In this document: positions 4,648 through 64,000 of the stretch, one piece after another
How positions within the stretch are numbered: the first letter of the stretch is position 1
Layout of the letters: the number at the start of each line of letters is the position of its first letter
Origin: a virus
Length of the DNA stretch: 64,000 nucleotides
Virus record (IMG/VR): IMGVR_UViG_3300047369_000650
Span: 64,001-128,000 of that record
Direction: 5' to 3' (one strand)
The notes under the pieces: model-generated
The model's input: the letters and a program-made list of their open reading frames with translations, nothing else
Told to the model about the DNA's origin: nothing
The model's database searches: none
Position numbers and translations under genes: made by a program

Positions 4648-4666
4648 GCCACGGGGAAAGTGAACT

Positions 4667-11040: not shown

Positions 11041-14000
11041 ATGACCTTAGCAATATATAATAATAGTGATAGTTTACCATCTCCAGTTAATGCTAATGAG
11101 GGTGATATAGCATTTGTAAAAGAAACAGGTGAAACTAAACAGTTCTTAGATTTAAGTACACTTTCTTCTTTCTCTTATAGCTTTGATGGTAATTCATATT
11201 TAAGCGTAGACTCTCCAAATATTAATCACCTTTCTAATAATATAAATGATAATTTTAGTATATCATTTTTTAGTTATTCGGTCGACTCTCCTTTCAATGG
11301 TTCATTATTAAGTTTTTATTTAGACAGTAATGTTTCAACAATAGTTGATGGGTCAGCAGTGCCAGCGACATTAACTTTATCTGATTCAATTAGTGCTTTT
11401 ACATTTACGCCTTTAGAAACATTAAATAATCCTGAAGCTAACGCTGCTAGTATATATTTCCCTGGAGTAAATTCTTCAATAACATCTAGCGCTAATCAAT
11501 CTTTGGTTAATTTTACTCAAGAGTTTTTACCGTACACGATCGAGTCTTGGACCAAAACTTTACAGACTCCTCTAGGAAGTCAGACTGTAACAGATATTCC
11601 AGGTTGCTTAAGATGGACTAATGATGGTATTATTACAAATGATGTGAAATTTAAATTTCAGACACCAGGTAATTTTATATATGATACTTGGGAACATAAT
11701 GCTTTATCTTATGATGGTTATGATCACAAATATTTTTTAAATGGAACAGAAATTCCTATGTCAATGGATGCCAATTATGAATTTAGTAATGGTAGCCTTT
11801 ATTTAAATCAATTTGAAACAGATAAAAGTGCAACCTTTCAAGCAAAGGTATTTTTCCCTTTAACACCAGTGGATGCTACACTTTTTTCTTTAGGTAATAC
11901 TGGCAATCAGACTAGTATAACATTGTCTAATGCATCAACTACTCCTACACTTACATTAGCTAAAGACGGATTAAGTGTTTCAACTACTTCAGTTCCGGCT
12001 GATAGTGATTATCATGTTGTGTCTTGGATATACGATAATGACGCTGGTTCTATAAAGCTATTATTAGATAATTCTGTTGTAGGAACGGATACTTCGGGCT
12101 CAAGCTTTACTAATTGGGCAGATCAGGGTTCTACCGAATATATTTCAGAATATCCAATATCGGCAGGTGATATAACATATCAACCATATCACTATCATCC
12201 ATCAGCGGCAAATCATGAAGTTCTACAAGATGCTACTACTATTACATCTAGTGGTAATATTAGAATGAATACAACTCGTAATAATAGATGGTCATATTTT
12301 GTAATAACTGGAGGCGATCTTATAACAACATCTCAAAATAAAATATATTATTTTGAATCTAAGTGGATAGGAAATCCAAGACCGAGTACAAGTGCAACCG
12401 ATCCATATCCATATACAAACTCTGGTGTTTTTATTGTTGATGCTGGATGGGATGGTTTACCTACTTCACCTAATGATACTGAATATACTACCGAAAGATG
12501 GCAAGGTGAACATCTTAGAAATTCTAATCTTAGACCATCCGCTTCTAATAACGGTATATATTTAGCACCGCTTTTAAATAGTACTAATGGATATGGAAGG
12601 CACGATAATGGAAAAATATATAGCTATTTTATAGACACTCGCAATAATAAATTAATATGCTTTCGAGATGGACGGTACCTATTAAGAAATTTTGCTAATG
12701 CTTTTGGTGGCGGGTCTGCCCCTGTTGCTGGAAATGGATTTAAAATAGCCATACAAAATTGGAATAATGATAGATATAGCGCAAAACCATATGATCCAGA
12801 TGCAAATGTTGAATTTGTTTTTAATAAAAATGACTGGTCTTTTGATCCGATGGAAATATATCGGACTTATTCTTCAAACTTATCAATTACAATACCAGAA
12901 GACGGTGCTTTTCTATCTAGTTCCAATTTTCAAAATTGGCCACAAGAAACTAATAGTTGGCCATATAAACTTAGATATTATCCTAAGAAAGTAGAAAAAT
13001 TAGAAGCCAAATCCATCACATTAGGTACAGGTGAGAGGCAGCTAAATACCGAAAATGAGACTGGTACTTCATATGCAAATTCATATATTGCAAATACAGG
13101 CGGCTCTATTGTTTCACATAGTGATAGTGATTTAACATCTTTAATAAGTAGCGGTTCAATTAATAGTGGTGACGCATTATTATTAGATTCTGGAACATAT
13201 TCTTTAAATGCAATTCCAGACCCTACGTATGGTAATTCTGGCAATGGAACATTTAATCCATTTGGGGGAAAAAGTATTCTTATTTGTGGCAAGACTTCAA
13301 ACCCAAATGATGTAACAATAAATTATACACCAACAAATATCTATAGAGATAAACCTCTTTTTGGTAGAACACAATCACCAAATAGTGGAATTTCATTCGT
13401 AAGATTCAAAAGAAAATTTGTAGGTGGCGCCGTTACTAATTATACAATGGCTATAAGTAATTTCTCAAATGGATTTACTTGTCATAAAACTATTTTTGAT
13501 TTTGATAATGAGAAATTTTCTTTTAGTTATGATAATAGTTATAAACCTGGCAAAAAAATATTTAATGAGTGTGTATTTACAAACTATAATGGTGAAGTTT
13601 TTCCAGATTATAGAGGAGAGCCATCTTCTATAGTTATTAACAATTGTATTTTTACCGATGAATATGATGAAAACAGTTCTTTTAGACATACTAAAAAAGG
13701 TTTAATAGAAAAAGATGTAAAAGTAAGTAATACAAACTTTTCTTTAACTAAAAAGAATTTTGAAGGTTATATGAAAAACTTTCATGTAAGAAGTTTACAA
13801 GCATATGATTCTGATTTTACTGTAAATGATTCTACTCAAAGAAGCCCTATTTTTTCTTCTAATACTCAAGGCGTTAATACAGAATTACTAGTTAAATCCA
13901 CAGGTGAAAGCCCTACAATACTTGAAGTTACAACATCAGGAAATTTATTACATAATAACAATAGAGTATATAGTGGTTCTATAGAAAAACAAGATTGGAC

Positions 14001-14976
14001 TTATCATAGAATAAAAATTGATAATAACAATTTAGAATATTATAATGATAGTTCATTATTACATACCATAAATAATTTCTTAGTCCCAGAAAAAACAGTT
14101 TCTGATATGGAAGTATTAATCGGAAATAAAAAAGTATTTCAGTCCTCTACAGGATCTTTTATTGATAATCCAGTAGAACAAGATACAATCATAAAAGATT
14201 TTCGTTTAGCTGATAGTATAGACACATCCGTGCCTAATTCAGATCATACTAGAGTTTCAGAAGATAGAGTTTTAACTGCTGATAATTCTACAGTTCCTAG
14301 TAACACTGATGTTAATGTTGTTGGTTCAGGTATTTTTGGAATTAATTTTAGCCCAGTTGCTGGTCAAAATAGAAATTGGTTTACTATATCAAAGGAAAAT
14401 CCTTCGGTAGCTATTAATACTAATATTGTTACACACAATAATGAGATTGGTGCAAATTATGATACTATTGTTAATACATATGATTCAGATCTTATTTTAT
14501 TTGATAGTGGAAATGATTATAAAACTGTCATTACATTACAAAATGTAGATGATTCAAATCAACCCATAAAATGGACATATGAAGTTTTACAGCCAGAAAA
14601 AAGAATTAATATTGGATATGATTCAACTGAAACATCTTACTTAATTAAAAAATATAAAAATGAATATAATCCTGATGATTATGATGCAGGTGGAACACAA
14701 ATAGCTAGTCTCCTTTTCTATCCACAAAAAACAGATTTAAGTGATTCTTCAGAACCAATATTTTTTAATTCTGTAGGAACACAAGAAAAAGGTCCAATTT
14801 CTTCTATAAATGTTATATGTGATAAATTTGGGTTAAATCTTGATAATGAAAATTTATTTAATGTTAATATAGTTACATTTTCCGAATTAGATTCTACACA
14901 ATCCGAATCTTCATATGTTTTTGAAAATAAATTACCAGAAATACAAATATACGATAGTATAGGAGCTTTACCATGA
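11041..14976 (+). CDS. Large virion fibre/receptor-binding protein with LamG-like and possible beta-helix segments
   Basis: Ser/Thr/Asn-rich, lies within the fibre cluster, has an N-terminal LPSPVNANEGDIAFVKET motif shared with other fibre tips, and a GDALLLDSGTY...KSILICG segment. Confidence 0.6.
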   Translation: MTLAIYNNSDSLPSPVNANEGDIAFVKETGETKQFLDLSTLSSFSYSFDGNSYLSVDSPNINHLSNNINDNFSISFFSYSVDSPFNGSLLSFYLDSNVSTIVDGSAVPATLTLSDSISAFTFTPLETLNNPEANAASIYFPGVNSSITSSANQSLVNFTQEFLPYTIESWTKTLQTPLGSQTVTDIPGCLRWTNDGIITNDVKFKFQTPGNFIYDTWEHNALSYDGYDHKYFLNGTEIPMSMDANYEFSNGSLYLNQFETDKSATFQAKVFFPLTPVDATLFSLGNTGNQTSITLSNASTTPTLTLAKDGLSVSTTSVPADSDYHVVSWIYDNDAGSIKLLLDNSVVGTDTSGSSFTNWADQGSTEYISEYPISAGDITYQPYHYHPSAANHEVLQDATTITSSGNIRMNTTRNNRWSYFVITGGDLITTSQNKIYYFESKWIGNPRPSTSATDPYPYTNSGVFIVDAGWDGLPTSPNDTEYTTERWQGEHLRNSNLRPSASNNGIYLAPLLNSTNGYGRHDNGKIYSYFIDTRNNKLICFRDGRYLLRNFANAFGGGSAPVAGNGFKIAIQNWNNDRYSAKPYDPDANVEFVFNKNDWSFDPMEIYRTYSSNLSITIPEDGAFLSSSNFQNWPQETNSWPYKLRYYPKKVEKLEAKSITLGTGERQLNTENETGTSYANSYIANTGGSIVSHSDSDLTSLISSGSINSGDALLLDSGTYSLNAIPDPTYGNSGNGTFNPFGGKSILICGKTSNPNDVTINYTPTNIYRDKPLFGRTQSPNSGISFVRFKRKFVGGAVTNYTMAISNFSNGFTCHKTIFDFDNEKFSFSYDNSYKPGKKIFNECVFTNYNGEVFPDYRGEPSSIVINNCIFTDEYDENSSFRHTKKGLIEKDVKVSNTNFSLTKKNFEGYMKNFHVRSLQAYDSDFTVNDSTQRSPIFSSNTQGVNTELLVKSTGESPTILEVTTSGNLLHNNNRVYSGSIEKQDWTYHRIKIDNNNLEYYNDSSLLHTINNFLVPEKTVSDMEVLIGNKKVFQSSTGSFIDNPVEQDTIIKDFRLADSIDTSVPNSDHTRVSEDRVLTADNSTVPSNTDVNVVGSGIFGINFSPVAGQNRNWFTISKENPSVAINTNIVTHNNEIGANYDTIVNTYDSDLILFDSGNDYKTVITLQNVDDSNQPIKWTYEVLQPEKRINIGYDSTETSYLIKKYKNEYNPDDYDAGGTQIASLLFYPQKTDLSDSSEPIFFNSVGTQEKGPISSINVICDKFGLNLDNENLFNVNIVTFSELDSTQSESSYVFENKLPEIQIYDSIGALP

Positions 14977-17900
14977 GTGTATATTCAGCAGGCTCCTTAA
15001 TCCCTGATAGCAGTAATGGTGCAGTATTTGATCGCTCACTAACTGTTAATGGATTAAAGATTGTTGTAGCTGGTGCTGTAGGTGGACAGAGTACAGTACC
15101 CGATTCTTGGGCTCTAAAGATTGCAAGAGTAGTACAATTAATAATTGACCCTAATGCACCAAATATTAATATACCAGATCAAATAAAATTAATTAATACT
15201 TTAAGAGGTGCCGCTGGAACTTTTCATGCTGGTTACCCAACGGCACAAAGAATAGGTTATGGTGGTGGTTCAACTTACACACCAAATTGGTTAGAAGATA
15301 CCGGCATTCCTAGTTATTCTGGCTATCAAGGGTTTTTAAATACTCATTTATCAAATGATATGATATGGTATAGAAATATTAATGGGCCAAATCCAACGAC
15401 AAGTGATAGTGAAATTGAAGAAGTTATGGAGCATATATTCCATACTATTCATTTATTTGGCATACCGGGTGCCGTAACAGGAAGTTCAACTGCTGTAAAC
15501 TGGAGAGCAACAGATTTTGCCAATAATGATTGGAAATTAACTGAACTTCATTTAGCTATGGCTGAAGCTATTAATTCTGGAAAGTTTGATCCTAGCGACT
15601 ATGCTGCAAATTGGAATACTGTTGCCGATGCGGCAGAAGTTGCATATAAAGAATATATGTATTTGCTTAACTGGGGTATGTGGGAAATGTCTGAATTTTG
15701 GGATGGCGAAAGTTTATCTCCAGAATGGTCTGACGATATGCGAACAGTATCCGGAATACAGACTAATAACCCTTTAGGTTATGCTTTATTTAACTCATAT
15801 TTTAATAAAGTATTGAGTAAACCAAATTTCTCAACTTTAAAAAACATATTTCAAGGTAATGATATTGGCATATCAGGTTATGTTCAAGATTATATACAAG
15901 ATTCAATAGAAGATGCTTTTAGCCAAACTGCATTTATAGATGGTTCTTATTATAATAATATTGATAGTCAGTGGTTTAAAACGGGAATACAAACCCCTGG
16001 ATTTAATTCTTATGCAATAATTGGTGGTAAATTAGTTATTAACTATGATTCAGATTTTGATATATTAAGAAATGGATTAACTCCATTTTTAAATTTTAAT
16101 AATGTGGATAGCAATGGTAATAGTATTATTTGGTCTAGCTCAATTAAATATGATGATGGTGCTAATGTTCCAAATAGTAGATTTGCAACAATATCGATAG
16201 TAGGTTCAACTCCACAATTTTCTGTTGTACCATCTAAAGATCCATATGAACAATATAAAACAAATATAATAAGATTTGAAACATCTTCGTTACCTGCGTT
16301 TTCACTATATGATAGTGACAAACAAATTGAGTATAATAATCTTTCAAAATTAAGTGTTGATATTAATTTTTCATATTCTTCTGCTAATATTACTAGTAAT
16401 CACGGTAAAGGATATTCATTAGTAACAATAGGATCTCCACTCGTAAACTTTTTTAATAATTCAAGCATAAAACCGTTTGGAGACAATCAAGGATTACACT
16501 TCAACAGTAACGGCACGAGATTATTTGTCAATAATAATTCAAAGATTAATCAGTACGATTTAACTGTGCCATATGATACTCTAACCATGTCAAATGTAAA
16601 ATCATATACACCACACTTAAACGACGGTACTGGGCTTACAGATTTGACTTTTAATGATTCTGGAAATAAAATGTATCTCGTTAATAATTCGGGCAATAAG
16701 ATACATGAATATGATGTAGATACTCCTTTTGATATAACTACAGCTATTAAAAGAGACAATATTTTAACCCAAGCTAATATGGATAAAGATATTGTCATAG
16801 TTGATAATGGTTCTAAATTAATTACGAAAACTGGATCAACTGTTGTAGCTCACGATTTAGAAGAAAATTATAATATTTCTACTTGGAATAATACAGCAAC
16901 TTCAAGTAAATCTTTAACTACATTAACATATCGAGTCACCGAAAATAGGTACCCTTCTGCTTATGAAAGAAGATATAGTGGTGTTTATTATTTTAGACAA
17001 ACATATTATTCATCACCTTTTTATAGAACTCGTTGGGTAAGTCAATGGGATCATTCTTCTACCGCTAAGTCATATTGTTTTTCTAGTAATGGTCAGTATA
17101 TTTTCTGGGTCACTGGTTTAGCATCTTATTTCGGAAGAGTTTATAGACAAAGTCTTACAACGCCTTGGGATATTACATCAGCTACTTCAACTCAGACAAG
17201 AAATCATACTATAGGAAAAGCAACTAGTGATACATTTGAAAGAAATGATAAAAATAATGGTGTTCAATGCATTCGCATTTCGCCTGATGGTTTAAAATTA
17301 TTTTTATTAGATACATATACGCATTCTATATTTCAACATAATATGACAACAGCATATAGTTTATCATCAATTGGTAGTAATATAAGAGAATTAGACAAAG
17401 CTATTGAACCCAACGGTGGCTATGAAGTTAAATTCACATATAGTGAAATTCCTAATCCTACACCATCGTCATCATATACAGATACAAGTAATGTGAGAAA
17501 TTTTTCATTTAATAGTGGAGGAACTAAACTTTATATTACCAATGATAATGACGTTTATGAGTATAATCTTATAGCTCCTTTTGATTTAAGTTCTGTAACA
17601 TATGTTACATCGTACAGTATCTTTTCTTCCGATATATCAGTCGATGGTGGTATATTTATTGGAGATAGTGATCAAAGAATATATGCATATGGAAGTAATT
17701 TTATTCGTCAATATAATTTAGATTCTAATTTAAGCACAATATCGGATCCTTTTAAGTCTAAAGAATTAGTTGTAACTGCAGAAGATAATCAACCTACAGG
17801 AATTTATTTTAATAATTCTGGATCCACTTTATATATGTGTGGCACTCAAACAAATAATGTATTTAAATATACTTTAACAGATAAAGATAAAATTTACTCA

Positions 17901-18197
17901 GCATCTTTTGATTCTGCATATTCAACACCATCTTTAATTACAAATCTTAATGGTATAGTAACAAATGAAAATGAAGATAAAATGTATTTATTATCAGATA
18001 GATTGGTAGCAGAAATAAACATAAACTCACAGTTTTCTACTTCCACAGATCCAGGAGTTAGCTATACTACAGTAAAAGGTAATTCGGTTAATGGAGGAAT
18101 AAGATGGAATAATGATGGAAGTCAGTTTATAATAGCAGGAAATTCCACCTTAGAAACATATAAAACTGATAATCCATTTAGAGTTATTCCGATATAA
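14973..18197 (+). CDS. Virion protein: N-terminal zincin-like domain and C-terminal beta-propeller repeats
   Basis: EEVMEHIFHTIH...KEYMY cluster; repeats such as FNSNGTRLFV..INQYDL, FNDSGNKMYL..IHEYDV and FNSGGTKLYI..VYEYNL; ATGA overlap with the previous gene. Confidence 0.6.
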   Translation: MSVYSAGSLIPDSSNGAVFDRSLTVNGLKIVVAGAVGGQSTVPDSWALKIARVVQLIIDPNAPNINIPDQIKLINTLRGAAGTFHAGYPTAQRIGYGGGSTYTPNWLEDTGIPSYSGYQGFLNTHLSNDMIWYRNINGPNPTTSDSEIEEVMEHIFHTIHLFGIPGAVTGSSTAVNWRATDFANNDWKLTELHLAMAEAINSGKFDPSDYAANWNTVADAAEVAYKEYMYLLNWGMWEMSEFWDGESLSPEWSDDMRTVSGIQTNNPLGYALFNSYFNKVLSKPNFSTLKNIFQGNDIGISGYVQDYIQDSIEDAFSQTAFIDGSYYNNIDSQWFKTGIQTPGFNSYAIIGGKLVINYDSDFDILRNGLTPFLNFNNVDSNGNSIIWSSSIKYDDGANVPNSRFATISIVGSTPQFSVVPSKDPYEQYKTNIIRFETSSLPAFSLYDSDKQIEYNNLSKLSVDINFSYSSANITSNHGKGYSLVTIGSPLVNFFNNSSIKPFGDNQGLHFNSNGTRLFVNNNSKINQYDLTVPYDTLTMSNVKSYTPHLNDGTGLTDLTFNDSGNKMYLVNNSGNKIHEYDVDTPFDITTAIKRDNILTQANMDKDIVIVDNGSKLITKTGSTVVAHDLEENYNISTWNNTATSSKSLTTLTYRVTENRYPSAYERRYSGVYYFRQTYYSSPFYRTRWVSQWDHSSTAKSYCFSSNGQYIFWVTGLASYFGRVYRQSLTTPWDITSATSTQTRNHTIGKATSDTFERNDKNNGVQCIRISPDGLKLFLLDTYTHSIFQHNMTTAYSLSSIGSNIRELDKAIEPNGGYEVKFTYSEIPNPTPSSSYTDTSNVRNFSFNSGGTKLYITNDNDVYEYNLIAPFDLSSVTYVTSYSIFSSDISVDGGIFIGDSDQRIYAYGSNFIRQYNLDSNLSTISDPFKSKELVVTAEDNQPTGIYFNNSGSTLYMCGTQTNNVFKYTLTDKDKIYSASFDSAYSTPSLITNLNGIVTNENEDKMYLLSDRLVAEININSQFSTSTDPGVSYTTVKGNSVNGGIRWNNDGSQFIIAGNSTLETYKTDNPFRVIPI

Positions 18198-18200
18198 ATA
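18193..18200 (+). promoter_or_regulatory. T4-type late promoter TATAAATA
   Basis: Exact gp55 consensus about 30 bp upstream of the 18230 start. Confidence 0.75.
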
Positions 18201-18229
18201 GAATTATATTTAGTTTATAGGACATTAAT

Positions 18230-19582
18230 ATGCCATCAGCAGCAAGAAATTTAGCTAATCTATTAGGCGGATCCGCTACGATACCACAGGAAAAACTTGG
18301 AGATGATATATCCACAATTGAACAAGTGGCTACAACGGCACAATTAAGTGATACAGGAAACTCTGTTGGTGACCAAAGAGTTGTAGGGAATAATCTTTAC
18401 ATCTGGAATGGATCAGGCTGGTTTAGAATTGCTTTAATAAATGAAACTCCGACATGGGATTCAGGCGGTCAACCACTATCCTCATATGATTTAAGCTCAG
18501 ATAGCCCACAAACAGCTACAACAATTACTCTTGCTGCTACAGATCCAGATGGATTCCCTATCAACTATTCTTATGTGACTGGCGGTTCTATGGATTCTAT
18601 AGCAACTATCGGTCAAGATTCGTCCGTATTTACGATTACACCTAAAACAGAAGCTCAAGCACCAGATGGTGGTACTGGAACTATTACATTCAGAGCAAGT
18701 GATGGTATTAATATTCTACCTCAAGTGTCCAGCTTTACACTCTCATTTTCTGAAAATGCTTACTATATTGATCCTAGAGATCATGGTATGACTACTGGAA
18801 ATTTTTCTGGTGTTGGTATTAATTCTAATGATGAAGACCTCTATGTTTTGGGATATAGTGGAGACCAAAGAGTCTATAAATGGGAATTAGGAACACCAAC
18901 GGAACTAGCTTCAATTCCTAGTACCTATACTCAGAGGGCAGGTATATCCAACGGCACACCTTCTGGATTTTATATAAACCATGCTGGAACTTATTATTAT
19001 TACTGTAGTTATGGTAATGTATATCAAGTTAGTTTATCAACAGCAAACGATTTAACTACTGGTTCAGAGACATATACTGGCACTACTACTAGTGGACAAG
19101 CCTTTAATAACAGTGGACTTATTTTTGGTGCTACTATGAGTCATACTGGTCATAGACTTTATATAAGTGAAACAAATACCAATAATATACATGAATATCC
19201 TCTCAATACCAATTGGGATATATCAACTGCGCAAAATCGAACAAATTCTTTTGATCCTAATAATATCACCTATGCTTATGGATTAGGATGGAGCTCAGAT
19301 GGTATGAAACTTTGGGCTGCTGAAAACAGGTATGTACGTGAATATTCTGCATCATCCGCATATTCATTATCGGGTATGAGTGCAACTCCAAGCGCATCAT
19401 TTGATATGCAAGATTTAAATGGTAATGTTGATAACGGTGTAAATAATCTTAATAATCAGGAAATTAGGGGTATAGCCGTATCATCTGATGGAAATAGATT
19501 GTATCTGAACATAAGAGGTAAAGGTGTATATAAACTTACCATGACATCTCAAAATACAATTGCAGATGGTTTTGAACTTTAA
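18230..19582 (+). CDS. Fibre tip protein: shared N-terminal docking/Ig-like module plus beta-propeller
   Basis: LYIWNGSGW..IALINETPTWDSGGQP...ILPQVSSFTLSF is nearly identical to 8558 and 38431; the C-terminus has propeller repeats like those of 14973. Confidence 0.75.
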   Translation: MPSAARNLANLLGGSATIPQEKLGDDISTIEQVATTAQLSDTGNSVGDQRVVGNNLYIWNGSGWFRIALINETPTWDSGGQPLSSYDLSSDSPQTATTITLAATDPDGFPINYSYVTGGSMDSIATIGQDSSVFTITPKTEAQAPDGGTGTITFRASDGINILPQVSSFTLSFSENAYYIDPRDHGMTTGNFSGVGINSNDEDLYVLGYSGDQRVYKWELGTPTELASIPSTYTQRAGISNGTPSGFYINHAGTYYYYCSYGNVYQVSLSTANDLTTGSETYTGTTTSGQAFNNSGLIFGATMSHTGHRLYISETNTNNIHEYPLNTNWDISTAQNRTNSFDPNNITYAYGLGWSSDGMKLWAAENRYVREYSASSAYSLSGMSATPSASFDMQDLNGNVDNGVNNLNNQEIRGIAVSSDGNRLYLNIRGKGVYKLTMTSQNTIADGFEL

Positions 19583-19585
19583 AAG

Positions 19586-19614
19586 TTAGTGTTCCCTATC
19601 CTCAAGTAATTACT
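19586..19614. repeat. 29-nt intergenic element, copy 1
   Basis: ttagtgttccctatcctcaagtaattact; 26/29 identical to 63972-64000. Confidence 0.85.
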
Positions 19615-19619
19615 CTTTT

Positions 19620-19648
19620 AGTATATACTAGATTCTCTGAATTGTAAA
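19620..19648 (-). promoter_or_regulatory. Early sigma70-type promoter on the minus strand, no downstream ORF
   Basis: Minus strand reads ttttaggggTTTACA-17 nt-TATACT, the same extended motif as the other early promoters. Confidence 0.75.
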
Positions 19649-19664
19649 CCCCTAAAATAAGGTA

Positions 19665-19693
19665 TTTACATTGTATAGATATTAGAGTATAAT
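19665..19693 (+). promoter_or_regulatory. Sigma70-type promoter for the glycosylation island
   Basis: TTTACA-17 nt-TATAAT, followed by an AGGA Shine-Dalgarno and the 19722 ATG. Confidence 0.85.
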
Positions 19694-19721
19694 AGATTAT
19701 AAACAACAGGATGATTTCGTC

Positions 19722-20501
19722 ATGAAACGATTGATTTATCAAGTGTACGTTGGAAAGCGTTCAAAACTCTATGACCACTGTGTTAACTCAGTAGCAGAAT
19801 ACTGTAAAGCACACGGCATTGTACACGAAGTACAAAAAACTCCCATACTCATGATTAAACCAGATGTATTTTCTACAAATCGCAGTAGAGAATCTTATGA
19901 AAAACATGGTGGTTACTTACCAATCTATGAAAAAGAAAACGCCTTTTCATATCTTAAAACATATGATCAAGTAGCAATAGTAGATGCTGATGTATGGATT
20001 CGTCCTGGCGCTCCAAATATCTTTGACGATTTAGAACCACAGTATGATTTTGGTGGTGTCGTTGAACGTGAGATGCCTATTACAAATCAATACAAAGGTA
20101 AGATAGCAAACTATTCACGTATGCAATACCAGACTATTAAGAAAGTGGATTGGAAGTGGAATAATCTTGGTGCGGAATTTATGAATATGGGCATTATGGT
20201 TATGAACCAAAAGATCCAAAAATATTTAAGAGGAGAAACTCCAACACAATTTATTCGTCGTCCGGAGTTTAAACCATTTGTTGATGGTATGGGTGCTTGG
20301 AAATGGTCCACTGATCAGACACTATTAAATACATGGATTCGTGAAGAAAATATGAAGATTAAAAATATGGACTGGAGATGGAACGGATTATTTACTGCTA
20401 ATACTCGCATTAAAGAGTGTCACTTTGTTCATTTCTTTTTAAAGGACCATCTTCCAAACAGAGGTGAGAATGTGGAACAATTAAGGGAATTGGTGGAATG
20501 A
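19722..20501 (+). CDS. GT-A fold glycosyltransferase (GT8-like)
   Basis: DxD motif IVDADVW, NMGIMVMN, DQTLLN and a C-terminal FVHF. Confidence 0.75.
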   Translation: MKRLIYQVYVGKRSKLYDHCVNSVAEYCKAHGIVHEVQKTPILMIKPDVFSTNRSRESYEKHGGYLPIYEKENAFSYLKTYDQVAIVDADVWIRPGAPNIFDDLEPQYDFGGVVEREMPITNQYKGKIANYSRMQYQTIKKVDWKWNNLGAEFMNMGIMVMNQKIQKYLRGETPTQFIRRPEFKPFVDGMGAWKWSTDQTLLNTWIREENMKIKNMDWRWNGLFTANTRIKECHFVHFFLKDHLPNRGENVEQLRELVE

Positions 20502-21202
20502 GTTTATGGGATGATTTTTTAAAGGATATAACTAAAGAATTTAAAAACAAAGAAAATTTTTTAAAAGGAAATACTATTAGACGTTGTCTTCATCCTACAA
20601 TGGATTCAATGACAGCAATAAAATATCTTAACAAAGTTAATCATTTAGATTTTTTAAAACCAGATCCACAAACTGGAAATCCTATACACTGTATAGACAA
20701 ATTTAGTTTAGTGACTTTACAATCATCACTATATCTAAAAACTATGATAAAAAAATCTAAGTTAGATACTATTAGTGAAATACATGATATTGGTGGTGGT
20801 TATGGAAATATGGCATGGACACTAAAAAACTATGGATATGATAAAAAATATATTATATATGATTTTCCAATTATGCATGATATTCAGAAGTACTGGTTAG
20901 GAAAACAAAATATTAAAGTTGAATATAAATCATTAGATGAGTTAGATCCGGGTAAAAACTCGCATCTTATAGGCACACATAGTATAAATGAAATGGACTT
21001 ATCTGATAGAGAAAAAATACCATTTAATAAATTTAAATCGTTTTTCATTGCACATAATAAAATATTCAATGGAATAGATAATGTAAAATATTTTAGAAAT
21101 TTAGCAAAAAAATTAGATCATACTACTGAACATTTATTTTTCGGAGATGATGATGGACCATTACAGGCATCGCACTATTGGTTAACAGGGGTTAAACCAT
21201 GA
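20498..21202 (+). CDS. Putative sugar O-methyltransferase
   Basis: SAM motif I (IHDIGGGYGNMA), YIIYDFP and THSINEM. Confidence 0.65.
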   Translation: MSLWDDFLKDITKEFKNKENFLKGNTIRRCLHPTMDSMTAIKYLNKVNHLDFLKPDPQTGNPIHCIDKFSLVTLQSSLYLKTMIKKSKLDTISEIHDIGGGYGNMAWTLKNYGYDKKYIIYDFPIMHDIQKYWLGKQNIKVEYKSLDELDPGKNSHLIGTHSINEMDLSDREKIPFNKFKSFFIAHNKIFNGIDNVKYFRNLAKKLDHTTEHLFFGDDDGPLQASHYWLTGVKP

Positions 21203-21870
21203 AAAATTTAATTATTCAACACTTTGATGGCGAACTTCGAGACCTTGATAAACTTTCAATAAAAAATATTCAAGAGTATGCTGAGATGGTTGGTGCTGAA
21301 TATCAATTAATAAGAGGCAAGCCATTTAGAAAACATCTTACATCCCCTTGTCAAAAAGTACACATGATAAATCAAGAATTTGATGAGTATGATCAAGTTT
21401 TAATGTTAGATATAGATATGTTTGCTCCGAAGAATATGAACGTAAATATATTTAAACAAGAAGGTGTTGGTTTATATGCTGATACACAGATTAGACTTCA
21501 TAGAAGATTAACTGAGTATTATCCCATGCAATCAAGTATTGAAGCACCTTATTGGGGTGGTGCAATATATAAATTAGATAGAAAACTAAGAAAAAAACTA
21601 AGAGCTGGTCTCGGCGGAAATGAAAATTGGATGAATAACTATAATAAGTTATATCATTTTGAAGATGAAGGCATTATGCACACATTAGCTTGGAAAGCTG
21701 GAATACCAATAAAAGGTATGATATTAGATAGAAAATGGTGTCAATGCAGTTTTCTTCCGAATCCAGAAAAAGCTGGATTTATTCATATTCGCACAAAGAT
21801 TACACCATCGGGACCGAAAAGAGAAAAAATAGAAAATTACAATGAACTAGTTTCAAAAGGAATATTGTAA
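21199..21870 (+). CDS. GT-A fold glycosyltransferase
   Basis: LMLDIDMF DxD motif, DEGIMH and FIHIR; N-terminal MKNLIIQH is paralogous to 19722 and 23057. Confidence 0.7.
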   Translation: MKNLIIQHFDGELRDLDKLSIKNIQEYAEMVGAEYQLIRGKPFRKHLTSPCQKVHMINQEFDEYDQVLMLDIDMFAPKNMNVNIFKQEGVGLYADTQIRLHRRLTEYYPMQSSIEAPYWGGAIYKLDRKLRKKLRAGLGGNENWMNNYNKLYHFEDEGIMHTLAWKAGIPIKGMILDRKWCQCSFLPNPEKAGFIHIRTKITPSGPKREKIENYNELVSKGIL

Positions 21871-21888
21871 AAAACAAGGACATACGTT

Positions 21889-23055
21889 TTGGAAATAAGA
21901 AACCCAATTGATTTATTGACACATAAAAGATTTGATGTTCCTATTAAATATATGTATGCATCAAATTTATCAAGTAATTTTTATAAAAATGCATATAAAG
22001 AACATTTAAGAGTTTGGAATAATTTTCGTGAAGGAACACCAAATAAAAATGGTTTTGAAGATTTTGATAATGCATTTAAATCAATAATTAATAGTGTTGT
22101 TGATGAGCCAGTTCCAGTAAATAATGAAGGACACCTTGCAAACGGCGCTCATAGATTAGCAGCAGCATTATATCATCAAAGACCTATTAATACTAGAAAT
22201 ACAAATGATAGAGAAAATTATCACATAGAATGTGATTATAGTTTTTTTATTAAAAAAGGTTTATCGCAAACAATTTTAAAAAGAACAGCATTAGAATATG
22301 CAAAACTTAAATCTAATACACACGTTATTTGTTTATTTCCTATTGCACATACTCGTATTCAAGAAGTTATGAATATAATTAGTAAATATTGTAATATATT
22401 TTATCATTCATCTACACAATTAAATTCTGAAGGGCAACTCGGATTAATGAAAGAAATATATCTCGATGATGGTTGGGCAAATGAAGAAGGCATAAGGAGA
22501 AAGGGAAATCAATGCTTTATGGGATATCCTAATGTTACATTTGTATTAGTGGATGGAAAAAATCTTGAAACTGTGAAAGAAATGAAGAAAAAAATTAGAG
22601 CATTGTTTAATGTCGGTAACCATTCTGTTCATATTAATGATTCGCATGAAGAAACTGTTAGGATAGCAAAAACTGTATTCAATGACAATAGCATACACTT
22701 TCTTAATAATAGAAAGAATATTTCTTTTCCGAAGTATAAAAAACTTATGGCTAATATGAAACCAAACGATAATGAAGTAATTACTGGTTCAACGGTATTA
22801 TCGCTATATGGTTTAAGAGATTGTAAGGATATAGATTTAATCTATTATAATAATCCGCCTGCTGACTCTCATAATCAATATTTAGAAACACACTATAAAC
22901 TAACTCTTGATGATATTATTAATAATCCACTATATCACTTGTATTATCAAGGTTTTAAATATGTGTCTTTAAATGTAATAAAGAATATGAAAAAATTAAG
23001 AAATGAACAAAAAGATATTATAGATGTAAATCTAATAGAGAAAATAAGAGCTTAA
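21889..23055 (+). CDS. ParB/Srx-like domain fused to a nucleotidyltransferase-like domain
   Basis: TTG start; LANGAHRLAAA (ParB-like GxHR) and ITGSTVLSLYGLRDCKDIDL (GS...DxD NTase motif). Confidence 0.5.
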   Translation: MEIRNPIDLLTHKRFDVPIKYMYASNLSSNFYKNAYKEHLRVWNNFREGTPNKNGFEDFDNAFKSIINSVVDEPVPVNNEGHLANGAHRLAAALYHQRPINTRNTNDRENYHIECDYSFFIKKGLSQTILKRTALEYAKLKSNTHVICLFPIAHTRIQEVMNIISKYCNIFYHSSTQLNSEGQLGLMKEIYLDDGWANEEGIRRKGNQCFMGYPNVTFVLVDGKNLETVKEMKKKIRALFNVGNHSVHINDSHEETVRIAKTVFNDNSIHFLNNRKNISFPKYKKLMANMKPNDNEVITGSTVLSLYGLRDCKDIDLIYYNNPPADSHNQYLETHYKLTLDDIINNPLYHLYYQGFKYVSLNVIKNMKKLRNEQKDIIDVNLIEKIRA

Positions 23056-23056
23056 A

Positions 23057-23878
23057 ATGAAAAACTTAATTTATCAAGTGTGGGCTGGAAAGCTTTCAGA
23101 AGAAGCAAAAGTTAGTAGTAAATTGATGAAAGCCTATGCTGAAAAAATTGGTGCAGAATATATACTTGATTTAAATCCAAATATTGCTAGTAAAATATGC
23201 GATGTTCCTATGTACTTCGAATGGTTAAATCCGATAATAGATGATAGATTTCTAAAGTACGATAAAATTCTATCAGTTGACTTAGATGTATTTCCGGTAG
23301 AAAATTTAAAAGAAAATATATTTAAAGAAGACGTTGGTGACATAGGCGCATGTACTGAACCGTTTCAAGGAAAACAGAGAGCAACAGTGACTGTAGGTGG
23401 TCACATAAATAGACAAAATGATGAAAAATGGGCAGCTGTTGTAAAGAAAAATTGGGGTATTAGTCTTCCAAGAGATGAAGACGATAATCTTAAAGTATAT
23501 AACGCTGGTATGGTGGTTTTTACTAAAGAAGGAATAGAAAAAGCAAAAGAATGGATGCCTTTCCAAGAATATATTGATTTCATGAGAAATAAAGGATTTG
23601 GAAGATTCTATACGGTAGATCAAAATTATTTCCACTTAATGGTATTTGCAAACGCAAATATAGATTTTAGAGAAATGAATAACGGATGGAATTCTCAAAT
23701 ACATTATGTTAGAGGTCCATTAGCAATAACTAACAATATAAATGATGAGAGAAATGAAAATACAAAATTTGTACATGTACAAATGACCGGACATAAGTGG
23801 AATGAACAAAGCCTTTATGAAATTGTAAATCTTTCACGAAGTAAATGGAGATTTAAATATAGTGAAATTAGTAGATAA
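23057..23878 (+). CDS. GT-A fold glycosyltransferase (GT8-like)
   Basis: SVDLDVF, YNAGMVVF, DQNYF and FVHVQ. Confidence 0.75.
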   Translation: MKNLIYQVWAGKLSEEAKVSSKLMKAYAEKIGAEYILDLNPNIASKICDVPMYFEWLNPIIDDRFLKYDKILSVDLDVFPVENLKENIFKEDVGDIGACTEPFQGKQRATVTVGGHINRQNDEKWAAVVKKNWGISLPRDEDDNLKVYNAGMVVFTKEGIEKAKEWMPFQEYIDFMRNKGFGRFYTVDQNYFHLMVFANANIDFREMNNGWNSQIHYVRGPLAITNNINDERNENTKFVHVQMTGHKWNEQSLYEIVNLSRSKWRFKYSEISR

Positions 23879-23894
23879 TCTGTAAGGAGAGCAA

Positions 23895-24533
23895 ATGGCC
23901 AAAAAGTTAAAGGATACATTACAAAGCATAATGGTTAATTACGACCCGTTTAGAATAAAAGAAAGAGAAAGTAAAAGTGGTAAACCAGTGGGTAGATCAC
24001 TAGTGTTAGAAAATTTGATTAAAGAAAATAATCTGAAAACTGGAGCTGAATTAGGCGTAAGAGCTGGTGAAAATTATTATTATCTACTAGCGCACTGCCC
24101 TGATCTTGAATTACTCGGAGTGGATCTATTTCAAATACAACCAGAAGGTGCTGGTGAAGGCCATAGGCGCAAAACTTTTGAAAAGCCAGAGCACGGCTTT
24201 TCATATGACTTTGAATCATATTATAAATTTATTCAAGAACTACAAAAAGAATTTGGGCCTCGAGCAAAGTTTATTCGCGATTGGACTACAGAAGCAGTTA
24301 AACAAATACCAGATAATAGTTTAGATTTTATTTTTCTTGACGCTGACCACGCATATAAAACAGTAGTAAGAGATATTGAAGATTGGAATCCAAAAGTCAA
24401 AAAAGGTGGATATATTACCGGTCATGACTGGTACCAGTCTCCAGTTAAAAAGGCAGTTACGGATGTTTTAGGTAGAAAAGATATTCAAATAAAACAAGAC
24501 AACGTATGGATATATAGGAAAAAGAATGATTAA
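23895..24533 (+). CDS. Class I SAM methyltransferase (Methyltransf_24-like)
   Basis: GAELGVRAG, LDFIFLDADHAY and GGYITGHD. Confidence 0.85.
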   Translation: MAKKLKDTLQSIMVNYDPFRIKERESKSGKPVGRSLVLENLIKENNLKTGAELGVRAGENYYYLLAHCPDLELLGVDLFQIQPEGAGEGHRRKTFEKPEHGFSYDFESYYKFIQELQKEFGPRAKFIRDWTTEAVKQIPDNSLDFIFLDADHAYKTVVRDIEDWNPKVKKGGYITGHDWYQSPVKKAVTDVLGRKDIQIKQDNVWIYRKKND

Positions 24534-25098
24534 TTCTGAATTAGGACATGTAAAAACTCTTGAAGAGTTTAATAGTGAAATTCGTAGACAGCAAGAAGAA
24601 GCGCATGGTAAGGGTTATACCGATATTCATGATGCAATACAAAAATATCTAAAAAAAGAAGATGTTTATATGGAATTTGGTACACACCAGGGTGGAACCG
24701 CTTCTGCTGCTATGTTAGCTAAACCTAAAAGTGTTATTATGGTAGATATAGATCCTTCAAGATATTATAAATTTCTAAGCCCTATTGCTAATAAGTTTTG
24801 TGAAGAAAATAATATTGAACTAAAGATGAAACAGACTAGTTCAATAGGGCTAGGAGCAGTTGCAAATTGTGATATGCTTGTAATAGATTCAGTTCATACC
24901 ACTACTTTTATGAATCAAGAGTTATCTTTACATGGGGGAAATGTAAATAAGTATATTATAGCACATGATACCAGTGAACTATTCGGAAAGAAAAATGACA
25001 GTTTATTCCAAGTCTTAAATAATTTTGCAATTGCAAATAATTGGAAAATTATTGAAAGAGGGACAATAAATGTTGGATACACAGTTTTAGGAAAGTAA
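24526..25098 (+). CDS. Class I SAM methyltransferase
   Basis: MEFGTHQGGT, DMLVIDSVH and IIAHDT. Confidence 0.7.
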   Translation: MINSELGHVKTLEEFNSEIRRQQEEAHGKGYTDIHDAIQKYLKKEDVYMEFGTHQGGTASAAMLAKPKSVIMVDIDPSRYYKFLSPIANKFCEENNIELKMKQTSSIGLGAVANCDMLVIDSVHTTTFMNQELSLHGGNVNKYIIAHDTSELFGKKNDSLFQVLNNFAIANNWKIIERGTINVGYTVLGK

Positions 25099-31522: not shown

Positions 31523-31599
31523 GGTTCCTTAGCTCAGCTGGATAGAGCAACTGCCTTCTAAGCAGTAGGTCATAGGTTCGAATCCTATAGGGACCACCA
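31523..31599 (+). tRNA. tRNA-Arg(UCU)
   Basis: Full cloverleaf; anticodon arm ACTGC-CTTCTAA-GCAGT, TTCGAAT T-loop, encoded CCA. Confidence 0.95.
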
Positions 31600-31604
31600 A
31601 TAAT

Positions 31605-31679
31605 ATGGGTGAAGTGTTAATGGTTGCACGTCGGATTCCAAATCCGAAAGACAGAGTTCGATTCTTTGCACCCATGCCA
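31605..31679 (+). tRNA. tRNA-Trp(CCA)
   Basis: ATGGGTG/CACCCAT acceptor stem, TCGGA-TTCCAAA-TCCGA anticodon arm, G73 discriminator plus CCA. Confidence 0.9.
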
Positions 31680-31696
31680 AACAAAAAGGATATATT

Positions 31697-31864
31697 ATGC
31701 GTAGAGGAAACAAACCTGAAGCAGAAGACTATATAAAGGTAAGGTTAGAGTTTCTTCACGAAGAAAAGAAAAAGAACGATAATCAAACTGCACATCTAGT
31801 ATTAGATAAAGCAATTTATGAATTAAGTATTGTTCTTGATCTTTTGACAAGAAACGGAGTTTAG
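31697..31864 (+). CDS. Hypothetical protein (55 aa) within the tRNA cluster
   Basis: AAGGA Shine-Dalgarno; the stop codon lies inside the 5' end of tRNA-Pro. Confidence 0.65.
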   Translation: MRRGNKPEAEDYIKVRLEFLHEEKKKNDNQTAHLVLDKAIYELSIVLDLLTRNGV

Positions 31865-31931
31865 CGCAGTCTGGTAGCGCATCTGCTTTGGGAGCAGAGG
31901 GTCAGAGGTTCGAATCCTCTAACTCCGACCA
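31855..31931 (+). tRNA. tRNA-Pro(UGG)
   Basis: CGGAGTT/AACTCCG acceptor stem, TCTGC-TTTGGGA-GCAGA arm, CCA. Confidence 0.95.
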
Positions 31932-31938
31932 AAAATAT

Positions 31939-32013
31939 TCCGGCGTAGCTCAGTGGTAGAGCAGTTGACTGTTAATCAATTGGTCGTAGGTTCGACCCCT
32001 ACCGCCGGAGCCA
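31939..32013 (+). tRNA. tRNA-Asn(GUU)
   Basis: TCCGGCG/CGCCGGA acceptor stem, GTTGA-CTGTTAA-TCAAT arm, GCCA end. Confidence 0.95.
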
Positions 32014-32018
32014 AATTA

Positions 32019-32094
32019 GGGTCTGTAGCTTAGTGGTTAAAGCTGCCCGCTCATAACGGGTAGATCGTAGGTTCAAATCCTACCGGACCCACCA
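32019..32094 (+). tRNA. tRNA with CAU anticodon, most likely Ile2 (lysidine-modified); elongator Met is the alternative
   Basis: GGGTCTG/CGGACCC acceptor stem and GCCCG-CTCATAA-CGGGT arm; no C1:A72 mismatch, so not an initiator; the body resembles bacterial Ile2 tRNAs. Confidence 0.85.
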
Positions 32095-62048: not shown

Positions 62049-63556
62049 TGGATATAGTTAAAGTACAGAAGAAAGATCATGCTAATATGATTATTGGGTG
62101 CGATTGGGGTATTGCTCAAGAGCTATCTGATTATTTTTCTTTTTTTGTTCCTGGTTATAAATTTATGCCTCTATATAAAAATAAGGTATGGGATGGCAAG
62201 ATAAGATTATTTAATGTGAATAACTGCGAGTTATCATGTGGGCTTATATCTTATGTAAAAGATTTCTGTGAAAAAAGAAATTATCCGTTAGAATATGAAA
62301 AAAGTAAATACGGTTTACCCGAATCATATAATAAAATAGATCCTAATAAGATTATGGAATTTATAAAAAGTCTTGATCTAAAAAGTAAAGGCGAACCTAT
62401 ATCCATAAGAGATTACCAATTTAATGCTATCTGTGAAGGTCTACAAAGAAAAAGATCCATACTATTATCGCCTACGGGTTCGGGTAAATCTTTAATTCTA
62501 TATTGTTTGGCTAAGTATTGGCTTCAGATGCTTACAGATGGATTTAATTATCCTAGAGCAGGTAAGGTTTTAATCATTGTTCCTACAACATCTTTAGTTG
62601 AACAAATGTATGGAGACTTTGCAGATTATGGACAAAATCCTACTGGTATGCATAAAATCTATTCAGGTAAAGATAAAGAATTTGATAGTGCTATCTGTAT
62701 AAGCACATGGCAATCCATTTATAAAATGCCACCCGCTTGGTTTGATCAGTTTGGTATGATTTTAGGTGATGAGTGTCACGGTTTTAAATCCAAATCACTT
62801 ACTAATATTATGAATAAATGTAAACTAGCAGAATATCGCTATGGTACTACTGGCACACTTGATGGAACACAAACGCACCAATTGGTATTAGAGGGTCTTT
62901 TTGGAAAGGTAATGAAAGTTACTACGACTAGAACTTTACAAGATAATCAAACTCTTGCTGATTTAGAAATTCTTATGATTCAACTACAATATAGTGAAGA
63001 GATAAAAAAGCAAATGGTCGGTCTACAATATCAGGATGAAATAGACTACATTGTAAAATATGAACAAAGAAATAAATTTATAAGAAATCTTGCTCTGGAT
63101 CAAAAAGGTAATACTTTAGTTTTATTTCAGTTTGTGGAGAAGCACGGAAAGCCTCTTTTTGAGCTGATAAATAGTAAGGCTAAAGAAGGAAGAAAAGTAT
63201 TTTTTGTAAGTGGTGCTACAGAAACATCTGATAGGGAAGCTATTAGAAAAATAACAGAGGGTCAGAAAGATGCTATCATCGTCGCTAGTCTTGGTACTTT
63301 TAGTACTGGTATTAACATACGGAACTTGCATAATATCATATTTGCTTCTCCGTCAAAATCCCAGATCAAAGTTCTCCAGTCTATTGGGAGGGGATTACGG
63401 AAATCAGAGGATGGAACGACTACTAAACTCTATGATATATCAGATGATTTCCAACACAAATCAAGAAAAAACTATGCACTCCTTCACAGCGAAGAAAGAT
63501 TAAAGATTTATAAAAAAGAAAAGTTTAAATTTAAATTTTACAAGGTTTCAATATGA
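62048..63556 (+). CDS. uvsW: DNA helicase UvsW
   Basis: SPTGSGKS, DECH, GTTGT, STGINI and QSIGRGLR. Confidence 0.96.
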   Translation: MDIVKVQKKDHANMIIGCDWGIAQELSDYFSFFVPGYKFMPLYKNKVWDGKIRLFNVNNCELSCGLISYVKDFCEKRNYPLEYEKSKYGLPESYNKIDPNKIMEFIKSLDLKSKGEPISIRDYQFNAICEGLQRKRSILLSPTGSGKSLILYCLAKYWLQMLTDGFNYPRAGKVLIIVPTTSLVEQMYGDFADYGQNPTGMHKIYSGKDKEFDSAICISTWQSIYKMPPAWFDQFGMILGDECHGFKSKSLTNIMNKCKLAEYRYGTTGTLDGTQTHQLVLEGLFGKVMKVTTTRTLQDNQTLADLEILMIQLQYSEEIKKQMVGLQYQDEIDYIVKYEQRNKFIRNLALDQKGNTLVLFQFVEKHGKPLFELINSKAKEGRKVFFVSGATETSDREAIRKITEGQKDAIIVASLGTFSTGINIRNLHNIIFASPSKSQIKVLQSIGRGLRKSEDGTTTKLYDISDDFQHKSRKNYALLHSEERLKIYKKEKFKFKFYKVSI

Positions 63557-63975
63557 TCGATATAAACAATGTTAAACAATTAAAAATAGCAGACGGTTCT
63601 GAAATTATTTGTGAAATAATGGAAGAGCTTGAAGAAGATATCGTTGTAAGAGGTGCTTTTAGAATAGCCAGAGTAGATTTGGATAACGAAAGAAGTTATT
63701 ATATGTTTAAGCCATGGATGACTTATGTTGAAGAATCAGATCATTTTATAACAATTAATCTATATCATCTAATAGCAGCTACTGTACCATCTAAAGATAT
63801 TTTGGATCAGTATGAGAATGCTATAGAAAAAATCAGTGAAGCGGTATCAGAAAGAAATGATAGTCTTGATGAAATACCAGAAGAAGAAATAAAAGAAAAA
63901 TTAAGTTTAACAAATGATTCAGAAGTTGATAATGTGCTTAAGTTTAATTTTATTGATAAAACTAAGCTTCATTAG
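63553..63975 (+). CDS. Conserved T4-like protein downstream of uvsW (Sm-like fold suggested)
   Basis: KQLKIADGSEIICE and FKPWM; position typical of marine T4-like phages. Confidence 0.6.
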   Translation: MIDINNVKQLKIADGSEIICEIMEELEEDIVVRGAFRIARVDLDNERSYYMFKPWMTYVEESDHFITINLYHLIAATVPSKDILDQYENAIEKISEAVSERNDSLDEIPEEEIKEKLSLTNDSEVDNVLKFNFIDKTKLH

Positions 63976-64000
63976 TATTCCCTATCCTCAACTAACTACT
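63972..64000. repeat. 29-nt intergenic element, copy 2 (runs to the window edge)
   Basis: ttagtattccctatcctcaactaactact; 26/29 identical to 19586-19614. Confidence 0.85.

Follow-up and report, generated by a model that had tools for sequence, protein, structure and literature searches.

An early promoter with a conserved, G-rich leader and no gene behind it occurs three times in the genome of this phage, each time inverted with respect to its neighbours and pointing into late genes. We tentatively propose that this gene-less, inverted cassette of the PeSL (promoter-early stem-loop) type gives rise to a cis-acting early antisense transcript, the most likely role of which would be to prime replication. 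The analysis started from a window of 64,000 nucleotides, by which we mean the whole stretch of DNA under study, bases 64001-128000 of a 177,535-bp virus record (34% GC). About 156 of the 166 open reading frames (ORFs) of at least 80 aa are on the plus strand.

Judged by its marker genes, the record is that of a marine T4-like phage. The markers are a UvsW-type helicase, a gp55-type late sigma factor, the small subunit of ribonucleotide reductase and baseplate-like giant proteins, and the genes for the major head protein and UvsY were found under the DNA matches. Its closest named relative is Phage C48C1 (Kyanoviridae), with an identity of 61% in gp55, followed by cyanophages and pelagiphages at 45-52%; a megablast search of 18200-21200 against cultured phages gave zero matches. 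Five clustered tRNA genes lie at 31523-32091 on the plus strand of the window.

A sequence-only reading of the window had described an orphan minus-strand promoter followed by a 29-nt element that recurs at the window's end, and had taken the pair for a candidate small RNA family. Its coordinates are exact: the plus strand at 19586-19614 is TTAGTGTTCCCTATCCTCAAGTAATTACT, and a copy identical at 26 of 29 positions lies at 63972-64000. The promoter is as well formed as had been described (Table 1), and no ORF starts after it or after any other copy of the element. Searching past position 64000, which had been set as the test of the idea, shows that the second copy has a minus-strand promoter at an equal distance, and the same is true of a third copy, at genome positions 6501-6534, outside the window. 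In genome order, the copy outside the window is referred to here as copy 1, that at 19586-19614 as copy 2 and that at the end of the window as copy 3.

In all three copies, GTTTACA-N17-TATA(A/C)T runs straight into AAAAGAGTA-N5-TTGAGGATAGGGAAyACTA. The conserved block spans the region from the -35 to about +27, that is, to 33 nt past the -10, and is longer than the 29 nt first noted. Among the copies, the promoter hexamers are kept and the spacer between them differs; the leader does not differ in this way. Transcription is predicted to start near 19612-19614, and from there the leader is unstructured and purine-rich. The gene upstream ends 4 nt short of the element at copy 2 and about 50 nt short of it at copy 1; at copy 3, its stop codon TAG (63973-63975) falls inside the element.

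A strict scan for TTTACA-N17-TATA[AC]T found 12 sites on the plus strand, nearly all of them just before the start of an ORF, and only 3 on the minus strand, which are the three cassettes. When the genome was searched with a profile of the cassette, the three copies alone were recovered, at E values of 1e-16 to 9e-14, and the next match stood at E 0.79; a profile of the leader only gave E values of 3e-9 to 1e-8 for the three copies and zero matches in the plus orientation. By contrast with the whole cassette, the 14-nt core alone is weak in the window, where 7 of 100 shuffles gave at least 2 matches at up to 2 mismatches, and the significance therefore derives from the cassette as a unit and not from the core by itself.

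Table 1. Features of the orphan promoter cassette and its surroundings (positions in the window)
Feature	Position	Strand	Remark
-35 hexamer TTTACA, orphan early promoter	19643..19648	-	invariant in all three copies
-10 hexamer TATACT (TATAAT in copies 1 and 3), 17-nt spacer	19620..19625	-	
Conserved 33-nt block past the -10, AAAAGAGTAATTACTTGAGGATAGGGAACACTA	19587..19619	-	alignment; leader-only profile
Invariant core TTGAGGATAGGGAA (plus strand TTCCCTATCCTCAA)	19592..19605	-	
Copy 3 leader, clipped by the window end	63972..64000	-	promoter at window-equivalent 64006-64034
Partner early promoter TTTACA-N17-TATAAT of the operon starting at 19722	19665..19693	+	
Last gene of the late fibre cluster, 450 aa	18230..19582	+	no family match
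259-aa gene, first in the early operon to the right of copy 2	19722..20501	+	
140-aa gene, phrog_527, downstream of uvsW	63553..63975	+	

The positions of the three copies share a pattern. We drew a rough map of the plus strand from T4-type late boxes TATAAATA lying no more than 60 nt from a gene start and from early sigma70-type promoters. On this map, the nearest plus-strand signal upstream of each cassette is late (genome positions 4025, 82193 and 125029) and the nearest downstream is early (6618, 83665 and 128069). At copy 1, the late side is a fibre-like gene and the early side is nrdB; at copy 2, the last gene of a giant fibre cluster is followed by the 259-aa gene; at copy 3, uvsY, uvsW and the 140-aa gene are followed by gp55, the gene for the late sigma factor, at 64121. 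On the same rough map, a cassette is found at three of the four internal late-to-early transitions, the one at genome position 140.6 kb being without such a promoter. Every cassette stands back to back with a strict plus-strand early promoter, their -35 boxes lying 17-55 bp apart. The 450-aa gene of the fibre cluster is preceded by a late box TATAAATA at 18193-18200, and the orphan promoter points into the 3' end of this gene. At the other end of the window, the 140-aa phrog_527 protein and its orthologues share a conserved C-terminal K-hydrophobic-H motif, and their gene usually has its stop codon in the antisense leader or within a few bases of it.

The supposition that the element represents a family was borne out, in that it is found also in related genomes. 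A pattern scan of IMG/VR gave 32 loci with the cassette, a sample that is biased because the pattern already fixes most of the core. Over 25 distinct cassette contexts in this pattern-biased sample, the leader AAA(A)GAGTA-N5-TTGAGGATAGGG is nearly invariant; the promoter spacers at the cassette loci are of several types, unrelated to one another, and what lies downstream at one site is unrelated to that at another. Given this bias, orthologous sites were sampled also by way of their neighbouring proteins. In the relative L088, the flanks are 79-82% identical and the leader differs at only 1 of 33 positions. Better conserved than both flanks and spacer, the leader is under selection.

The site upstream of gp55, that of copy 3, was followed through 72 loci in which gp55 is 64-98% identical. 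In 60 of these 72 distinct relatives, the 160 nt preceding gp55 contain an antisense promoter that scores 11 or more out of 13, compared with 0 of 72 and 2 of 71 in control windows; Phage C48C1, cyanophage Syn1 and pelagiphage Mosig each gave a single example as well. In most of the IMG/VR leaders at this site, the -10 is followed by a short A-rich stretch, often in a small palindrome, and then by a T run, past which come a G-rich purine tract of 10-14 nt, the sequence ATATAC and the stop codon of the upstream gene. These leaders hold a mean of 9.95 G per 30 nt, and 90% of them have a run of at least three G; the corresponding values for the 30 nt that precede ordinary genes of these loci are 5.27 and 5%. 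The G tract of the gp55 site far exceeds a normal Shine-Dalgarno sequence. C, on the other hand, makes up merely 5-10% of the family profile at positions 10-30 past the -10. The G tract drifts in the relatives yet stays G-rich, and the palindrome covaries, with a stem of at least 5 bp in 17 of 61 leaders against 0.95 expected. Variants of the palindrome seen at the gp55-site loci L145-L224 (for example, L149, L152, L157 and L163) are AAAGA/TCTTT, AAGGA/TCCTT, AAATC/GATTT and AACGG/CCGTT, and its form in the relatives resembles the subclass of PeSL stem-loops placed just past the -10.

At the nrdB site (copy 1), several lineages have the module, each with leaders of its own, and about half of the loci lack it. 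The module at the 259-aa gene (copy 2) is restricted to a close clade; elsewhere the gene context differs, and no antisense promoter was found upstream of the 259-aa gene in distant relatives. The asymmetry between the strands recurs in four long, plus-oriented relatives: the gene strand has 6-14 strict promoters and the opposite strand 0-2, which, where present, usually include the copy at the gp55 site.

The core had also been noted to hold a Shine-Dalgarno-like run, and this run turns out to be a real ribosome-binding site in sister phages, in which the leader is followed by ATG and an ORF. In the sister lineage L139, the promoter and leader (...GAGGATAGGGATAT-ATG) head a conserved reverse-strand gene of 146 aa, and in the relative L389 a reverse-strand ORF of no fewer than 184 aa stands behind a module of similar build. 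The 146-aa ORF (L139:6402-6842, minus strand; also in L122, L123, L126 and L138) belongs to no Pfam family and adjoins rnh and a DUF6433 gene. No homologue or remnant of its product was found in the present genome. The possibility that the gp55-site promoter serves a small coding gene was considered and rejected: the antisense frames there amount to only 0-32 codons in nearly all relatives, so nothing is encoded. The ATG or GTG that follows the G tract in 52 of 61 relatives is the reverse of the conserved C-terminal His codon of the upstream gene.

The anatomy of the cassette recalls that of the PeSLs. In T4-type phages, a PeSL consists of a sigma70 promoter close to consensus with AT-rich DNA upstream of it, an adjacent stem-loop that can serve as a terminator and may follow the -10 immediately, and a Shine-Dalgarno tract with the start codon of the ORF. 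PeSLs recur within a genome, next to its most variable genes, and unrelated sequences are exchanged at them (PMC2839356, PMC4122927). The promoter of the T4/PST type is TTTACW-N17-TAYWAT (Arbiol et al. 2010, PMC2839356; Comeau et al. 2014, PMC4122927). The present cassettes share with PeSLs the promoter TTTACA-N17-TATA(A/C)T in 3 copies, an AT-rich approach (91% AT just upstream of the -35 in the gp55-site profile), a Shine-Dalgarno-like tract, the repetition and, at copy 1, a position at an exchange point between unrelated sequences; in relatives, they also share a stem-loop just past the -10. However, this stem-loop is missing from the 3 copies, leaders of the copy-3 type having at most 2-3 bp near the -10. 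Furthermore, PeSLs sit directly upstream of the ORF that they serve, whereas these copies are inverted with respect to their neighbours and gene-less: a Shine-Dalgarno sequence with a downstream ORF in gene orientation is absent from the 3 copies and present in L139 and L389. Unlike a PeSL, too, one of the copies lies between conserved core genes and is kept gene-less across the whole phage group.

At copy 1, the cassette coincides with a break in homology: 7 relatives are 91-97.5% identical over 800 nt to the right and have no detectable similarity over 800 nt to the left, and at copy 3 both flanks are equally conserved (79-99.8%). A fibre C-terminus of one type abuts the cassette at site 1 or at site 2, depending on the phage. 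In L234, L237, L238 and L241, the operon of the 259-aa gene directly follows a homologue of the 115-aa gene that here lies near copy 1 (G000:C1:4314-4661), so that whole modules have moved between cassette-bearing junctions. The fibre-side cassettes are sharp recombination junctions.

What might such a cassette do? The events that we infer are the production of an RNA, the formation of an R-loop and the priming of DNA synthesis. The host RNA polymerase would initiate near 19613 early in infection and read leftward into a silent late operon, and the product would be a non-coding RNA, the first 27 nt or so of which are G-rich, C-poor and unstructured. This RNA would act in cis at the late-to-early junction and not as a diffusible small RNA. 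The minus strand downstream of the leader is C-rich and G-poor, and Rho would shorten such an untranslated RNA, if the host has Rho. Its G cluster would keep it hybridised to the C-rich template as an R-loop, and the R-loop would start leading-strand synthesis into the untranscribed late region, as at oriF and oriG of T4. The cassette, repeated three times at module borders, is at the same time a recombination joint for swaps of fibre modules. Priming would explain both the wide retention of the empty form and the presence of a G cluster at the start of the non-template strand, and it would also explain why the sites match those of oriF and oriG and why they serve as recombination joints.

The comparison with T4 has two sides. 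In the T4 record, the primer RNA of oriF (ori uvsY) is the uvsY transcript, which converges on uvsW, and the primer RNA of oriG (ori 34) runs opposite to the fibre gene 34. The T4 origins require a promoter, there are several of them per genome, and most early T4 synthesis begins in regions dominated by late transcription (PMC3016281). In likeness to these origins, copy 3 converges on uvsW together with one small gene, and copies 1 and 2 run antisense into fibre-type genes. However, the promoters of the T4 origins are MotA-dependent middle promoters, whereas those described here are of the early sigma70 type. The T4 origins also need an A+T-rich unwinding element of about 50 bp downstream, and none is evident here: at 72-77% AT, the first 60 bp downstream of the cassettes rank between the 77th and 93rd percentiles genome-wide, and an AT-rich dip is missing from the family profile. 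Finally, the start is G-rich here and the T4 origins have no G tract, so that the argument from the G cluster is not derived from T4. Membership of the T4 R-loop class is accordingly uncertain, and a similar working mode is plausible. It is possible, if doubtful, that the cassette family represents R-loop origins of marine T4-like phages, in which the gp55 copy would correspond to oriF, and the fibre copies to oriG and, at the same time, to hot spots of host-range swapping.

Some observations tell against priming. The leader is an ordinary ribosome-binding site in sister phages, and its conservation could be translational in origin; copy 2 is limited to a narrow clade; and GC skew has no origin-like inflection beyond the effect of gene class.

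Alternatively, the same transcript might work as an anti-late antisense RNA, or its promoter as a transcriptional-interference insulator, with expression of the fibre and uvsW clusters kept off or late through convergent transcription early on and through pairing to the 3' ends of late mRNAs; an insulator could also block late transcripts from entering the early operon. Silencing of late fibre mRNA had been among the functions offered by the sequence-only reading, and it stays a live option here: the promoter does converge on late genes, and it does so at late-to-early borders. We regard this reading as possible, while slightly preferring priming. It has in its favour that the plus strand is without an intrinsic terminator at the cassette borders, though GC-rich hairpins occur elsewhere in the genome. 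One of them, AGAGGGCGGGAGATCGCCCTCT, follows a gene at G000:C1 ~137290-137320, outside the window, which indicates that the phage uses canonical terminator-like hairpins, but not at the three cassette junctions. In a genome of 34% GC, moreover, a G-rich 5' end would pair strongly with a C-rich 3' untranslated region. There is precedent in lambda OOP, directed against cII, and P22 sar, directed against ant, in both of which a non-coding RNA arises from a promoter of host type directed at the leader or 3' end of a gene, and in the early antisense transcripts over structural genes of the Pseudomonas phage PAK_P3. OOP and sar, however, are short and have their own terminators and defined targets, whereas the transcripts predicted here have neither a terminator nor a conserved body. 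Silencing is further weakened by the lack of an early promoter for tens of kb in the late operons upstream, which would leave little early sense RNA to silence, and by the late-to-early transition at 140.6 kb, where no such promoter is found. Interference needs only a promoter, and it would leave the leader, the best-conserved and an unusually G-rich part of the cassette, unexplained. It is rather unlikely, in our estimation, that the cassettes are solo PeSLs without an RNA function, that is, leftovers of, or docking sites for, reverse cassettes of a promoter and an ORFan, kept as patches of homology for recombination. Such an origin agrees with the anatomy of PeSLs as described (PMC2839356, PMC4122927), with the filled form of the sister lineages (a reverse ORF of 146 or 184 aa), with the sharp loss of homology at copy 1 and the rearrangement of modules at cassette junctions, and with the adjoining of one type of fibre C-terminus to the cassette at site 1 and site 2 in different phages. 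It agrees less well with the copy at the gp55 site, which lies between core genes with equally conserved flanks and is gene-less in 60 of 72 relatives, and this argues for a function of the empty form. The absence of the PeSL-defining stem-loop from the three copies speaks against it too, as does the invariance of both hexamers while the spacer drifts, which is the behaviour of a working promoter.

We consider a trans-acting small RNA family, be it a sponge for CsrA/RsmA, a decoy for ribosomes or their anti-Shine-Dalgarno sequence, or an RNA acting through a seed pairing, to be improbable. The idea arose from the sequence-only reading, of which the promoter, the repeated promoter and the family have held up, while the discrete small RNA, the CsrA sponge and the trans target have not. 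It draws on a conserved, single-stranded and purine-rich 5' end with two GGA motifs, on three promoters of equal build and on the capacity that the leader might have to bind 30S subunits, being a ribosome-binding site elsewhere. Yet similarity among the copies ends about 33 nt past the -10, and the sequences downstream of about +27 are unrelated, with no common 3' end. Past copies 2 and 3, the minus strand is free of intrinsic terminators for at least 1.5 kb, and past copy 1 it has only weak terminator-like sites, about 570 and 1350 nt away. The predicted RNAs fold no better than shuffles over their first 33 or 100 nt (z -0.68 to +0.85), and no common fold was found among the three copies. In Rfam, only tRNAs (the cluster at 31.5-32.1 kb) reach the gathering score, and nothing at E <=1 falls in 19300-19720. 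As to a sponge, CsrB and RsmZ likewise carry GGA motifs in a purine-rich RNA, but they are discrete, structured RNAs with many GGA motifs in hairpin loops; here there are only two, outside hairpin loops, one of them is missing in the natural variant GAGAATAGGG, and the phage has no CsrA gene. Nor, with up to 2 mismatches allowed, does the rest of the genome contain a complement of the core. Together, the missing terminator, fold, Rfam match, partner site and CsrA gene argue against a discrete trans-acting small RNA or sponge, which is unlikely. A protein-binding DNA site, an operator or initiator that overlaps the promoter start and is read as double-stranded DNA, strikes us as slightly more improbable still. 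An invariant block at a fixed distance from the -10 would suit such a site, as would the small palindrome that spans the predicted start in relatives (17 of 61, where 0.95 is expected). The core, however, is neither palindromic nor iterated, and a palindrome that covaries, beside a G tract that drifts while staying rich in G, points to a constraint on composition or structure more than to a fixed protein site. Least probable of all, in our view, is that the cassettes are the decaying starts of lost reverse-strand genes with no present function. They do have the form of a gene start, with promoter, Shine-Dalgarno tract and AT-rich spacer, and filled versions exist. Decay would, however, hardly leave a leader more conserved than its flanks or keep the gp55-site promoter across deep divergence; there is no remnant of the 146-aa gene here, and the antisense frames behind the promoter are random, with their 0-32 codons in nearly all relatives.

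To our knowledge, no replication origin has been mapped by experiment in the T4-like phages that abound in the ocean, whether cyanophages, pelagiphages or uncultured relatives of these. The middle promoters of the T4 origins depend on MotA and AsiA, and we know of no report of MotA or AsiA homologues in ocean T4-like phages. A gene-less, conserved promoter that points into late genes, at places like those of oriF and oriG, is a concrete, short and clonable candidate for an origin. If silencing is true instead, the cassette would represent a general timing device for co-directional phage genomes. In either role, it marks the exact joints at which tail-fibre modules, and with them host range, are exchanged in this group.

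Four RNA-labelled runs were compared with the region 14000-25000; these are assembled contigs, carrying neither strand nor end information. Two metatranscriptome runs each contain a 711-nt contig that covers 19596-20306 of the window at about 95% identity and begins inside the element. We rejected the contig edge at 19596 as a transcript start, as the element is a repeat and an assembly break is the simplest reading. One contig from an oligo-dT library spans the cassette of copy 3, including the region upstream of the minus-strand start, and therefore represents plus-strand RNA or DNA.

Several further readings of the element and its surroundings were tried and set aside. GC skew rises from about 0.03 to about 0.2 at copies 1 and 2 (G000:C1 ~4000-8000 and 82000-86000) and makes no step at copy 3. 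Neither GC nor AT skew was accepted as a marker of an origin, because skew tracks gene direction and class and its steps coincide with the change from late to early genes. A plus-strand terminator was dismissed for want of a usable hairpin in the element, and a plus-strand promoter (with TAGTAT as the -10) because a -35 is present in copy 1 only. An anti-Shine-Dalgarno tract that masks a downstream ribosome-binding site was likewise discarded, no matching complement being seen downstream on inspection. The palindrome of the relatives does not suit a hairpin at the 5' end of the RNA: it begins right past the -10, so that its 5' arm precedes the expected start. Counts of G-U pairs gave no strand for the palindrome, because the T run and the G run are adjacent.

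The spacer of copy 2 contains GAATC, a GANTC site (plus-strand GATTC at 19631-19635, within ...CGAATCTAGTATA...). The same GAATC is present in the spacer of copy 3 and in those of several relatives, and it is absent from copy 1. If the host has methylation of the CcrM type, promoters with GAATC in the spacer could fire according to their methylation state.
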